A stretch of DNA of 64,000 nucleotides from an uncultured SAR86 cluster bacterium (GTDB lineage Bacteria > Pseudomonadota > Gammaproteobacteria > Magnimaribacterales > D2472). Location of the stretch: NCBI GenBank assembly GCA_902582355.1, contig CACHRR010000001.1, forward strand, positions 5,421 to 69,420, in the 5' to 3' direction. The position numbers and the translations under genes were made by a program. The notes under the pieces are model-generated. The model was not told the DNA's origin and ran no database searches. It worked only from the letters and a program-made list of their open reading frames with translations. The first letter of the stretch is position 1, and every line of letters starts with the position of its first letter. This document shows, one piece after another, positions 53,246-55,835 of the stretch.

Positions 53246-55516
53246 TTAGAAGGTTAGATTAAATTTTAATCCGTAGTTTCTTCCAGGAAGTGGAACTTCA
53301 TTTTTTACAAAAGAAGAGTGATTCCTAGCTACTTCGTCAAGAAGATTGTTAGCGAAAAGTGAAACTTTAAGCTCACCTTTACCCATCCCATTAAATGTTT
53401 TAGTAAGTCTTGTATTAAGCATTTGATATGAATCAGTTGCTGTCTCACCCTCACCAAAATCATTTTGTTTTTCAACATCTTTTAGCATCAGCTTAAAGAG
53501 CAAATCATCTTGAGTATAGACTAAAGAATAAATGTTTCTTGCTGGATTAATTCTGGGCACATTGTGTCCATCTGAGAATTCAGCATTCACAACGTCTCTT
53601 CCGAAAGATAAAGCAAGCTCACCTGAGCCAAGATCAAAACTTTTTCCAAATTCAATCTCATATCCGTCAAACTCAGCATCCTCTTGCATGTAATTAGCAT
53701 GAATTAAATTACCATGACCATGATCATCATCCTCATCTTCATGATGCTCATCCTCACCTTCATGATGCTCATCTTCGTCTTCATGATGTTCGTCTTCATC
53801 CATGTGATCATCTTCTTCATCTATTAGAGCAATGTAATTATCCACGTCAGTGATATAAAAACTTGCGATAGCATAGAAATCACCATTATCAAAATTAAAA
53901 GTGATATCAAAGTTATTAGAAGTTTCACTGTTTAGATTTGGATCACCGACTTCAAATCTTCCTGTTGCCATATGAGGTCCATTCATGAAGAGCTCAATTG
54001 AAGATGGAAGTCTTTCAACACTTGCGTAACCAAGACTAACACCAAGATTGTCACTTAGATCTCTTCCAAGAGCTATAGCAAAACTACTTGTTGTATCATC
54101 TATGTTGTAATAATCAATATCTCCATGCTCATCTCCATGCTCGTCTCCATGATCATCTCCATGATCATCTCCATGGTCATCTCCGTGTTCTTCCTCAGAG
54201 ACACTCCCACTTCTTTCAATTTGATCCAATCTGAAACCTAAATCAAGATCAAACATTCCAAGGTCTTTACTTAAGTAATAACCAATTGTGAATTCTTCAC
54301 TATTTGCAGGATTCATGAATGCTTCTTCGCCAACAATAGAGTTATCTTCATCAACAAAGTTTACAACAACCTTTTGAGTTGAAGAGTCATTTGAAATATC
54401 AAAAGTAGCACCATACTCAACAGCCTCATTCATGAAAACGGTTGGAGCATGTTCTTCATGATCTTCTTCTTCTTCATGTTCTTCTTCTTCATGATGCTCT
54501 TCTTCAGCATGAGCCTCTGTTAAAGAGTAATCTGAATCTCGGTATGTAAAGTCAACTTTATTAACAAGATTTCCATTAACATTATATGAACCTCTTATAG
54601 AAAAAGTTTCAGAATCAGTAGTGGAAAAAATTCTTTCTTCACCATGCTCTTCTTCATCACCATGTTCATCTTCATGCTCGTCGCCATGAAATGGAATACC
54701 ATAAACACTTTCAAGATTATCAATTCCAAATCCAATGTAGCCCCAGTCTGTTACTTTAGATACACCGAACTTAGTTGCCTCAACAGCAAAATCTGAGTTA
54801 TTTATATATCCTAAATCTTCCTCAGAATGCTCATCTTCATGATGTTCATCTTCATCGTGATCATCTTCATCATGATGCTCTTCCTCTGAATGAATTACAG
54901 CACCACTAGGAACATCATAGTTTCCAAAGTCAGTATTTTTATAGCCAAAATTAACATTAAATCCACCAACATTGCCTTTTAAATTAACAAATTCTGAATT
55001 TCCGTCATTTACAGATTGAGATTCATATCCAACTGAAACCTCAGGAATTTCAAAATTCTTAGTTGAAATTAAATCATCAACAACATTGATAATTCCTCCT
55101 ATGGTCCCATTTGCGTATAGAAGGGATGATGGCCCTTTGACAATTTCAACTTGAGAAATATCATTCAAGTCAACATCATTTAAATGGTCAACACCAAGGC
55201 CAGACACATCTCTGTTCACAACACCATTTTTAAGTATTTTTACTCTTGGGCCTGACATACCTCTAATAATTGGTTGTCCAACAGCTGCACCATAGTCTGC
55301 AATTGAAACTCCAAGATACTCATCAATAGCATCTCCCAAACTTGTAGTTGCTCCATCTGAGAATTCAGTACCGTCAATAATATACAGTGGATTATTAATC
55401 TCACTTGTATCGATAAAAGCTGATGTTACAATAATTTCTTCGACTTCATCTTGTGACATTACTTCTATCGAATTAAGTGCAGTTAACACAATGAATGTGT
55501 TTAAAAGCTTTTTCAT
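53246..55516 (-). CDS. His/Asp/Glu-rich TonB-dependent metal receptor (ZnuD-like)
   Basis: EEIIVTS TonB box, PIIRGMSGPRV, GPSSLLYANG, ELFMNGPH, ARNHSSFVK...PLPGRN, terminal F; five His-acidic tracts; strong SD AAGGAGG. Confidence 0.9.
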   Translation of the reverse strand: MKKLLNTFIVLTALNSIEVMSQDEVEEIIVTSAFIDTSEINNPLYIIDGTEFSDGATTSLGDAIDEYLGVSIADYGAAVGQPIIRGMSGPRVKILKNGVVNRDVSGLGVDHLNDVDLNDISQVEIVKGPSSLLYANGTIGGIINVVDDLISTKNFEIPEVSVGYESQSVNDGNSEFVNLKGNVGGFNVNFGYKNTDFGNYDVPSGAVIHSEEEHHDEDDHDEDEHHEDEHSEEDLGYINNSDFAVEATKFGVSKVTDWGYIGFGIDNLESVYGIPFHGDEHEDEHGDEEEHGEERIFSTTDSETFSIRGSYNVNGNLVNKVDFTYRDSDYSLTEAHAEEEHHEEEEHEEEEDHEEHAPTVFMNEAVEYGATFDISNDSSTQKVVVNFVDEDNSIVGEEAFMNPANSEEFTIGYYLSKDLGMFDLDLGFRLDQIERSGSVSEEEHGDDHGDDHGDDHGDEHGDEHGDIDYYNIDDTTSSFAIALGRDLSDNLGVSLGYASVERLPSSIELFMNGPHMATGRFEVGDPNLNSETSNNFDITFNFDNGDFYAIASFYITDVDNYIALIDEEDDHMDEDEHHEDEDEHHEGEDEHHEDEDDDHGHGNLIHANYMQEDAEFDGYEIEFGKSFDLGSGELALSFGRDVVNAEFSDGHNVPRINPARNIYSLVYTQDDLLFKLMLKDVEKQNDFGEGETATDSYQMLNTRLTKTFNGMGKGELKVSLFANNLLDEVARNHSSFVKNEVPLPGRNYGLKFNLTF
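54119..54187. repeat. Imperfect 12-bp tandem repeat encoding (HGDD/HGDE)n
   Basis: About 5-6 copies of TCATCTCCATGN-like units within the receptor CDS. Confidence 0.85.
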
Positions 55517-55520
55517 ATTT

Positions 55521-55574
55521 CCTCCTTAATGAAAAATTAGTTTAATTAAATTTAAAAAACTAATTTAAAGGAGG
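55521..55574 (-). promoter_or_regulatory. SD-sequestering hairpin (putative translational attenuator)
   Basis: Outer 7-bp stem 55568-55574/55521-55527 (CCUCCUU:AAGGAGG on the mRNA) plus perfect inner 10-bp stem 55557-55566/55534-55543. Confidence 0.75.
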
Positions 55575-55835
55575 TGCTCTAGATAAATTTGATTTTTTTC
55601 TTTGATTCCTTAAACAAAAATTAATATCTTCTTCACAATCAATATTTTTGTAAAAAATTTTGTTGTTTGGAGAAGATACTTTTACTAAAAGATTCTCTTC
55701 ACAAGCCTGACATTCAGATGCGTGAGTATTATTATGATCTTCATCATGATCAAAATGATCAAAGTGACCGGCAAAACTATCATAAGAAAAGCCGGCAATA
55801 AAAATACTTGCAATTAAAAGATACTTTTTATTCAT
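55560..55835 (-). CDS. His-rich CxxC/RAPP leader protein (DUF2946/CruR-like putative arrest peptide)
   Basis: Signal-like N-terminus, HFDHFDHDEDHNNTH, CQAC, C-terminal SRAPPLN; 43 nt upstream of a TonB-dependent receptor. Confidence 0.8.
   Translation of the reverse strand: MNKKYLLIASIFIAGFSYDSFAGHFDHFDHDEDHNNTHASECQACEENLLVKVSSPNNKIFYKNIDCEEDINFCLRNQRKKSNLSRAPPLN

Follow-up and report, generated by a model that had tools for sequence, protein, structure and literature searches.

In the window analysed here, a 64,000-nt stretch of DNA from a SAR86 cluster bacterium, the gene for a ZnuD-like TonB-dependent receptor is preceded by a 91-aa open reading frame (ORF) that probably acts as a translational switch on the receptor, of the type known from SecM and CutF. 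The probability of this reading, judged from the sequence and from predicted RNA folds, is put at about 0.6. The broader claim, that the ORF is a cis-acting arrest leader of some kind, is given more confidence than this. All coordinates are those of the window, and the leader, the spacer and the receptor gene all lie on the minus strand. The assembly that contains the window (G000) is 965,743 bp in length and 80% complete.

The leader ORF (55560..55835, 91 aa and a stop codon) encodes MNKKYLLIASIFIAGFSYDSFAGHFDHFDHDEDHNNTHASECQACEENLL...KKSNLSRAPPLN. Residues 1–23 (55767..55835) consist of MNKK, a hydrophobic core, and SFA followed by G/D-H. This N-terminus is signal-like by eye and is conserved in an alignment of 35 leaders, and AlphaFold places a helix at residues 3–27. 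Residues 24–47 (55695..55766) make up a putative metal-binding block, in which a His-rich stretch (His at residues 24, 27, 30, 34 and 38) is followed by H38..E41-C42-Q-A-C45-E-E. The last eleven residues, KSNLSRAPPLN (81–91, 55563..55595), are the putative arrest module. The 3' end of the ORF reads AGA GCA CCT CCT TTA AAT TAG, giving R86-A-P-P-L-N-stop, with the RAPP codons at 55580–55569. A sequence-only reading of this DNA had reported the ORF with its five His, its C42-x-x-C45 and its R86-A-P-P, and every one of these was recovered in place.

A 43-nt spacer, rich in A/U and poor in C, follows the leader stop codon. Four bases 5' of the receptor ATG (55516) lies AAGGAGG (55521..55527), the receptor's Shine-Dalgarno sequence. 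It is the 3' arm of an outer helix whose 5' arm, the anti-Shine-Dalgarno sequence CCUCCUU (55568..55574), is made up of the Pro88-Pro89 codons and the first base of the Leu codon. Within this is a 10-bp inner helix. Its 5' arm, AAAUUAGUUU (55557..55566), holds the leader stop codon UAG (55562–55560), and its 3' arm is AAACUAAUUU (55534..55543). Both pairings had been pointed out in the sequence-only reading. An independent listing of inverted repeats contains both as 100% complementary, one of 7 nt (55521–55527/55568–55574) and one of 10 nt (55534–55543/55557–55566), and both helices are present in the RNAfold minimum-energy structure (-14.5 kcal/mol).

From this anatomy, its conservation in relatives and the predicted folds, an arrest, its ON/OFF polarity, and the role and identity of a metal are inferred as follows. 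The leader would combine an exported N-terminus and a His/Cys metal block with RAPP as its C-terminal arrest motif, the last two being set apart by a ruler of constant length, 40 residues. The ribosome would arrest when the first Pro codon is in the P site and the second occupies the A site, so placed that its footprint would cover the Pro-Pro codons, and with them the anti-Shine-Dalgarno arm, as well as most of the 5' arm of the inner stem. The two-tier hairpin would then be blocked, the unusually strong AAGGAGG would be free, and the ZnuD-like receptor would be translated (ON). Binding of metal, most likely zinc, by the His/Cys block as it emerges from the tunnel or lies within the translocon, or else the pull of export, would release the arrest. 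The ribosome would terminate two codons further on, the hairpin would close, and the receptor would be left untranslated (OFF).

The conservation of the leader bears first on this reading. The family has 224 homologues of 50–160 aa, none of which has a Pfam domain or a name beyond 'hypothetical', and no Pfam or NCBIfam family covers the window's own ORF. An exhaustive phmmer search against 1.84 billion representatives returned only 15 hits at E <= 0.001, which indicates that the family is narrow, and a search of the ESM Atlas returned unnamed clusters only. Of 36 other genomes in the genus, 31 carry the leader. It is also found in 3 of 24 genomes from three other families of the order (1/8, 0/8 and 2/8). 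In the peptide alignment, which holds the window's leader and 34 others chosen among 120 of the 224 homologues, H24, H38 and E41-C-Q-A-C-E-E47 are invariant. Residues M1–Y5, K81, S82, N83, S85 and R86-A-P-P89 are at least 90% conserved, and residues of approximately 50–80 vary freely. The two aligned rows that lack RAPP are one apparently frameshifted and one truncated sequence. When the loci are counted instead, all 54 in which the leader's C-terminus can be read have RAPP, the window's locus being counted once.

The distance between the two motifs is equally well kept. All 118 fetched proteins that have both CxxC and RAPP have a gap of 40 residues between them, and across 59 loci the gap is 40 residues in 52, 39 in 4 and 41 in 3. 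The three loci from other families have CHVC, CHLC or CYVC in place of the genus motif, and the intervening sequence is unrelated. Their gaps are nevertheless 41, 41 and 40 residues, and they end in (S/T)RAPP and two further residues. Downstream of each there is a 40–42-nt spacer, an AGGAGG and a receptor of 743–759 aa. The AlphaFold model of the window's leader has a mean predicted local distance difference test score (pLDDT) of 56.6, falling below 50 at residues 28–49, and shows no confident fold. A scan of the 965,743-bp assembly, covering ORFs of at least 100 aa and, near their ends, small ORFs, found R[AG]PP in no other ORF, with 1.4 occurrences expected from composition. An arrest peptide with a sensor module, rather than a folded protein, would be expected to show this pattern of a constant ruler and an invariable C-terminal end around a middle that is free to change.

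These features also bear on the possibility that the ORF encodes a working secreted metal-binding peptide, for example a periplasmic partner or a chaperone of the receptor, with RAPP as at most a pause and with no sensing by the nascent chain. A signal-like N-terminus and invariant His/Cys ligands would suit such a peptide, as would a receptor gene that is always close behind the leader. Plain translational coupling would then suffice, the hairpin being opened by any ribosome that finishes the leader. The middle third of the peptide is free to vary, however, while its last 11 residues and the 39–41-residue spacing are fixed, and the confidence of its predicted fold is low. RAPP is otherwise absent from the assembly and is a proven arrest motif elsewhere. 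The similarly built CutF is broken down once it has been exported (PMC9973294). A secreted, working peptide is therefore considered unlikely.

The second line of evidence for a switch is the hairpin over the ribosome-binding site. Folds were made for the 43 distinct sequences among the 51 loci that are readable through the receptor ATG. RNAfold pairs GGAGG with the Pro-Pro codons in all 43, with a probability of approximately 1, and places an inner stem over the leader stop codon in each. The same two-tier architecture is predicted in the three loci from other families of the order. The expectation that relatives would keep the hairpin is thus borne out at the level of predicted structure. The loops differ in length and sequence, and the arms are conserved. 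In the clade of leaders ending in YKS, FKS or YRS the inner stem is AAAGUUAAUU/AAUUAACUUU, and in the LN clade it is AAAUUAGUUAA/UUAACUAAUUU. As read from single folds, this appears to amount to a 2-nt difference in both arms. Locus L062 has a further distinct A/U inner stem. Among 57 loci, the spacer from leader stop to receptor ATG measures 38–48 nt in all but one, where it is 60 nt, and AGGAGG is found upstream of the receptor start in every locus that can be read through it. In one metagenome locus (L019, at ~3300–3314) the receptor start is ATA rather than ATG, with the leader, the hairpin and the Shine-Dalgarno sequence all undamaged. A non-canonical start, a pseudogene or an error of sequencing could each account for this.

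The predicted effect of a stalled ribosome agrees with the proposed polarity. Arrest with the first Pro codon in the P site was mimicked by making positions P-12..P+14 unpairable. The median cost of opening the Shine-Dalgarno sequence then fell from 6.18 to 1.30 kcal/mol. The predicted cost was lowered in 51 of 51 sequences, and in the window from 5.18 to 0.08 kcal/mol, as would follow from the earlier suggestion that a ribosome stalled at RAPP frees this site. In most of the genus loci the ensemble energy lies below that obtained with nearly all shuffled spacers. In 8 of the 13 tested only 0–4 of 300 shuffled spacers reach the native value, and for the window 26 of 300 do so.

A smaller hairpin may form as an addition to these. 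The inverted-repeat scan lists UUUUUCAU (55536–55529) with the receptor's AUGAAAAA (55516–55509), so that the possible structure occupies 55509..55536 and shares 3 nt with the inner stem's 3' arm. Its predicted stability is low (-3.7 kcal/mol, z -0.84), and its loop of 12 nt would hold the Shine-Dalgarno sequence. An exact complement of 6–8 nt is present at this place in 33 of the 43 distinct sequences; those without it belong mainly to the YKS clade. An intrinsic terminator at the main hairpin was considered and rejected. The U residues of the 3' arm lie within the stem, no U-tract comes after the outer helix, and the terminator scan lists none there.

Several results weigh against the hairpin as a selected switch. 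Proline-proline is encoded by CCNCCN, the complement of GGNGG, and any such pair near a strong ribosome-binding site will therefore be predicted to pair with it. The pairing of the Pro-Pro codons with GGAGG is almost automatic and alone is no evidence. The earlier proposal to fold 55500–55600 gave a divided answer, since the two helices appear in the minimum-energy structure while the stability of this 101-nt sequence is at chance level (z = -0.93, with 37 of 200 shuffles folding equally well or better). The predicted opening cost of the receptor GGAGG, 5.3 kcal/mol, is equalled or exceeded at 25% of 867 genomic GGAGG sites. When only the spacer was shuffled, 246 of 300 shuffles held the window's GGAGG at least as tightly paired. 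Loci L061 and L063 fold no better than their shuffled spacers. With the footprint blocked, 15 of the 51 sequences, mostly of the YKS clade, are still predicted to need more than 2 kcal/mol to free the site. The window shows no enrichment of CCTCCTT, with 10 occurrences found and 6.7 expected.

The tests for covariation belong with these. RNAalifold found no consensus structure in the MAFFT alignment of the 43 sequences, a result attributable to the misalignment of the two clades. In a model-fitted alignment, 88.0% of cells were paired against 87.7% in shuffles, which is not significant, and pairs with changes on both sides (n=3) were reached by 64 of 500 shuffles; the covariance model was built on the authors' own structure, and the YKS clade is partly out of register in the fitted alignment. 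Covariation in the stem, which had been anticipated, was thus not detected column by column. Among the 16 synonymous Pro-Pro pairs the native one gave the best result in only 21 of 43 sequences, with CCACCU loci about average. The synonymous-codon test therefore supports selection in the CCUCCU loci only. The case that the hairpin goes beyond chance is one made by the sequences of the relatives, and not by the window sequence alone.

What the relatives contribute is seen in their codons. The Pro-Pro codons of the 54 loci are CCTCCT in 29, CCACCT in 18, CCGCCT in 5 and CCTCCC in 2. The CCU-CCU choice that had been predicted to be conserved is therefore kept in only 29 of them, with CCA or CCG as the first Pro codon in 23. 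For the second Pro, 52 of 54 loci have CCU and none has CCA, a codon that accounts for 49.7% of Pro codons genome-wide and stands second in 118 of 205 Pro-Pro pairs. All four synonyms occur at the adjacent Ala codon. A wobble base of A or G in the first Pro codon is found in 19 distinct sequences, all of which lose the central U-A pair of the outer helix. A third flanking pair is present in 18 of these 19 CCA/CCG sequences, as against 6 of 24 CCU sequences. In the remaining one, L047, the register is shifted and CCUUCUUAAU pairs with AUUAAGGAGG. L008 has a change from U-A to C-G, and in L020 and L052 a change in a Phe/Tyr codon is matched in the spacer. These sequences are kin, and the compensation therefore represents perhaps four to six independent events.

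It is in light of these codons that an incidental complementarity should be judged. Under this explanation the hairpin would serve the stability, processing or insulation of the mRNA, and the receptor would be controlled mainly at the promoter-like element upstream of the leader. That Pro-Pro codons pair with GGAGG by their nature agrees with this, as do the null results of the thermodynamic controls and of the covariation test. So does the upstream element itself, which is conserved and has a semi-conserved stretch between its boxes, in a genome with one Fur-type regulator. It would leave several observations unexplained. A perfect AGGAGG is found in every locus, although 529 of 637 long ORFs of the genome have no Shine-Dalgarno-like 4-mer within 20 nt upstream of the first ATG; these start positions are approximate, so that this count overstates the lack. 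The codon for the second Pro ends in U in 52 of 54 loci, flanking pairs compensate where the central pair is lost, one locus shifts register, and the distance from stop to ATG is conserved. An incidental pairing is thus thought very unlikely.

The strength of this Shine-Dalgarno sequence is itself uncommon in the genome, with AGGAGG preceding a possible start at only 25 genomic places. The window also contains the 3' end of a 16S rRNA gene (~40600–40631, plus strand), which ends in the canonical CCUCCUUA and has CCTCCTT at 40625–40631. The leader's own CACCUCCUU is identical to this 3' tail.

The gene under the proposed control encodes a receptor of 756 aa (53246..55516) with Pfam Plug and barrel domains and several His/Asp/Glu-rich inserts, among them HSEEEHHDEDDHDEDEHHEDEH, EEEHGDDHGDDHGDDHGDEHGDEHGD and DEDEHHEDEDEHHEGEDEHHEDEDDDHGHG. 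Across the loci the leader is followed by a ZnuD-like receptor of 724–765 aa, and the earlier description of the downstream gene as ZnuD-like is upheld in that the TonB-dependent receptor that always follows is closest to ZnuD. The best NCBIfam match is ZnuD (NF038289, 1e-55) at 189.7 bits, below the cut-off of 950, and the next family is at 1.5e-26. The sole solved relative beyond the plug domain is ZnuD (PDB 4RDR), at 9.5e-32 with the single sequence and at 2e-47 with a 12-sequence profile. The zinc ligands of ZnuD are Asp99, His100, Glu340 and His499 (PMC4557270). D110, H111 and H515 of the receptor align with Asp99, His100 and His499, using a PDB chain offset of +14 that was checked against the 241-HSHEYDDCHAD-251 cluster, and are invariant in 12 orthologues. 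Against a full zinc site, the region of Glu340 is covered by no alignment. The orthologues have 30–42 His and 157–179 Asp and Glu.

The window's genome contains one Fur-family gene (C1:108323–108688, L059). Its product is closest to Fur, at 142.4 bits against a cut-off of 146, and has no cysteines. Each of five relatives of the same genus that are 91–97% complete has one Fur-family gene above the cut-off. No Zur-like second copy was found in these five or in the window's genome, other than a 19.6-bit fragment with two stops (G018), and the genus therefore appears to lack Zur. ZnuA was not found in the 80%-complete assembly. The evidence from the receptor and from its putative metal site makes zinc the best guess for the sensed metal, with copper or another divalent metal possible, and the odds on zinc are put as even.

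A more specific proposal can be made only tentatively, and is doubted more than it is believed. In these streamlined marine bacteria, where Zur appears to be lacking, the nascent leader would itself be the zinc sensor. The His...His...CxxC set, held 40–41 residues from RAPP, would fold on zinc at the tunnel exit or in the translocon, pull on the chain and free the arrest, while the RAPP codons doubled as the masking strand. If this is true, the leader is a natural counterpart of the engineered ADR1a-SecM zinc force sensor. In those constructs a Cys2His2 zinc site relieves arrest only with Zn2+, and only with a linker of 24–26 residues (PMC4571824), which indicates folding inside the tunnel. 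The two would share zinc-type ligands in a nascent chain at a sharply set distance from an arrest motif. They differ in that the constructs are artificial and in the order of the SAR86 ligands, His...His...CxxC, and the 40–41 residues from these to the RAPP Arg would put the ligands at or beyond the tunnel exit.

Among leaders that have been studied, the nearest in architecture is CruR. RAPP stalls the ribosomes of E. coli and B. subtilis (PMC10951233). CruR of Bordetella pertussis (bp2923, Pfam DUF2946) has a signal, a CXXC, 45 residues and then RAPP three residues from its end, and lies upstream of the gene for the TonB transporter BfrG/CrtA (PMC9426467). Its motif spacing is conserved within the family, to 1–2 residues, and copper relieves its arrest, upon which Rho terminates in the 162-nt intergenic region (PMC9426467). 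Arrest of CruR in a PURE system has the Pro codons in the P and A sites, and leader ORFs with RAPP or RGPP upstream of TonB receptors have been reported as a class across Gram-negative bacteria (PMC12992588). That report discusses neither Shine-Dalgarno sequences nor stem-loops. The SAR86 leader resembles CruR as a small leader with an export signal, a CxxC, a fixed spacer, RAPP 2–3 residues before the stop codon and a TonB transporter gene next to it.

The resemblance does not extend to family membership, which the sequence-only reading had suggested checking. DUF2946 (PF11162) has no hit for the peptide at E <= 1 and none genome-wide at E <= 10. An hhalign comparison of the 35-sequence profile with 3 true DUF2946 members gave a probability of 4.65%, over only 13 columns around CxxC. 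The SAR86 leader has ECQACEE rather than CPxC, carries a His-rich stretch, and has a gap of 39–41 residues rather than 45, equally tightly kept. Its spacer is 38–60 nt with a hairpin over the ribosome-binding site, as against a 162-nt region with Rho termination. The receptor is ZnuD-like and not CrtA, and no PepSY_TM gene comes after it.

The likeness does raise the possibility that RAPP arrest governs Rho-dependent termination or polarity here also, with Rho stopping transcription before or inside the receptor gene once the arrest is released. CruR, with the same architecture of signal, CXXC, RAPP near the end and TonB receptor downstream, works via Rho (PMC9426467), and a Rho gene is present in the genome of the window. 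Both are points against a purely translational switch, and receptor mRNA that is not being translated would anyway be accessible to Rho. The spacer, however, is 38–48 nt in 56 of 57 loci compared with 162 nt in CruR, and is A/U-rich with very few C. What is conserved is a hairpin that ends at the ribosome-binding site and is not followed by a U run. Judged on the spacer and its hairpin, control by Rho as the main mechanism is regarded as improbable.

A switch that acts on translation has its closest counterpart in CutF, from the cutFOG operon of Rhodobacter capsulatus. This has a Sec signal, a CxxxC, 45 residues and a Pro-rich end, and its stalling unfolds a stem-loop that shields the cutO Shine-Dalgarno sequence (PMC9973294), as is proposed for the SAR86 leader and its receptor. 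CutF-like proteins were defined as having fewer than 150 aa, PP in the last 15 residues, a signal peptide and a gene on the same strand no more than 1000 nt downstream (PMC9973294). The SAR86 leader agrees with this definition, having 91 aa, PP at residues 88–89 and a receptor gene 43 nt downstream, with the signal judged by eye and from the helix at residues 3–27. The CutF-like proteins fall into 29 clusters with Cys, His or mixed motifs, some of them beside TonB-like genes and some probably specific for nickel or cobalt (PMC9973294). The word 'zinc' is absent from the main text of that paper. There are also differences. CutF has CxxxC, and its Pro-rich motif is not RAPP and does not stall alone. 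In the SAR86 locus the strand opposite the ribosome-binding site consists of the arrest codons themselves. The difference in polarity counts against the proposed switch, since copper prolongs the CutF stall and expression is ON with metal (PMC9973294), the opposite of what is suggested here. The CutF polarity fits its output, a detoxifying oxidase.

Export-monitoring arrest peptides form a third group for comparison. SecM-secA, MifM-yidC2, VemP-secDF2 and ApdA/ApdP likewise have an exported leader with a C-terminal arrest motif, which is RAPP in ApdA/ApdP and RAGP in SecM. In such systems a hairpin that covers the ribosome-binding site of the next gene is opened when the ribosome stalls (PMC9973294; PMC10951233, PMC7897499). 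The gene downstream of the SAR86 leader is a metal receptor and not part of the Sec/YidC machinery. Together with the conserved His/Cys block, this suggests a metal input rather than, or besides, an input from export. ZnuD of Neisseria meningitidis is both the best family match and the best solved relative of the receptor, and the SAR86 receptor likewise has His/Asp/Glu clusters in exposed inserts. The match is 189.7 bits against the family cut-off of 950, the acidic and His inserts of the SAR86 receptor are more numerous and longer, and ZnuD is under the control of Zur, which was not found in the SAR86 genus.

The leader is best read as a previously unannotated variant of the known nascent-peptide metal switches. 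It is read as joining three features, which are the RAPP arrest of CruR, the occlusion of a ribosome-binding site as in CutF and SecM, and a ZnuD-like receptor in a lineage without a detectable Zur. Under the more tentative zinc-sensor proposal, with the arrest codons doubling as the mask of the receptor's ribosome-binding site, sensor, switch and output would fit in ~320 nt with no protein regulator. Among the papers listed by the literature searches, none connects zinc or ZnuD to an arrest peptide, and none describes RAPP codons acting as an anti-Shine-Dalgarno sequence; the family may already appear in the supplements of PMC9973294, PMC9426467 and PMC12992588. The earlier statement that such a sensor had not been described was too strong, as CutF, CruR and the class of RAPP leader ORFs upstream of TonB receptors are already published. 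The sequence-only reading is thus partly supported, being right in kind and wrong in its details on DUF2946, on fixed CCU-CCU codons and on novelty.

If the proposed switch is real, nascent-peptide metal sensing, so far known for copper (CruR, CutF), extends to a zinc-type receptor and to a group that is among the most abundant of the marine bacterioplankton. It would also mean that a genome of ~1 Mb with a single Fur-family regulator can still control a costly outer membrane transporter. The locus would then be a compact natural system in which arrest codons mask the ribosome-binding site of the next gene, and one that could be used to study the release of RAPP arrest by metal. A protein family with no Pfam or NCBIfam model would gain a testable function.

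Transcription of the unit may begin at an element directly upstream of the leader (55845..55876). Judged from its sequence, this element is inferred to be a promoter. It has two promoter-like boxes, CTTGAAAAA (55876–55868) and TCTAGTAT (55852–55845), each of which is conserved to at least 90% among 46 distinct sequences from upstream of the leader (loci L001–L055). TTGAAA and TAGTAT are 19 nt apart, and it is because of this spacing that the consensus scan misses the site. TAGTAT ends 9 nt before the leader ATG in the window and mostly 9 nt before it in relatives. The leader ATG itself has no visible Shine-Dalgarno sequence ahead of it, and the two observations together suggest that the leader mRNA may be nearly leaderless. 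A promoter for the receptor within the spacer was also considered, and the scan of the minus strand over 55377–56348 lists none.

The boxes are kept whichever gene lies upstream. In the window this is a zinc-type alcohol dehydrogenase gene (55828..56934; Pfam ADH_N and ADH_zinc_N), the final codons of which overlap the leader ATG (ATGAATAA). Where the dehydrogenase is present the boxes form its last codons (…DLKNGKINGLVCLTHE), and where it is absent the same bases are non-coding. Among 52 loci, the overlapping dehydrogenase is upstream in 21, another gene on the same strand ending 42–53 nt upstream in 24, and a divergent gene in 5, with no ORF in range in 2.

RNA data came from four seawater metatranscriptome runs in four studies. 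These are available as contigs only, which carry neither starts nor strand, and parts that they do not cover are uninformative. One contig from an RNA library matches 55389–55607 without a difference and therefore crosses the spacer. In the interval 55746–55940, contigs from the RNA libraries of two studies both end at 55940. This point is within the dehydrogenase gene, ~105 nt before the leader ATG, so that transcription from further upstream is possible.

At the other end of the unit, a terminator-like hairpin with a 12-bp stem and 6 G-C pairs is listed by the terminator scan just past the receptor stop codon (53201..53228, minus strand). The unit therefore looks like one of two genes, the leader and the receptor. 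Directly downstream, beyond this hairpin, there is a gene for a second TonB-dependent receptor of 855 aa (50578–53145, minus strand). It has no leader ORF of the RAPP kind, and its best matches are to haem/haemoglobin and catecholate receptor families.

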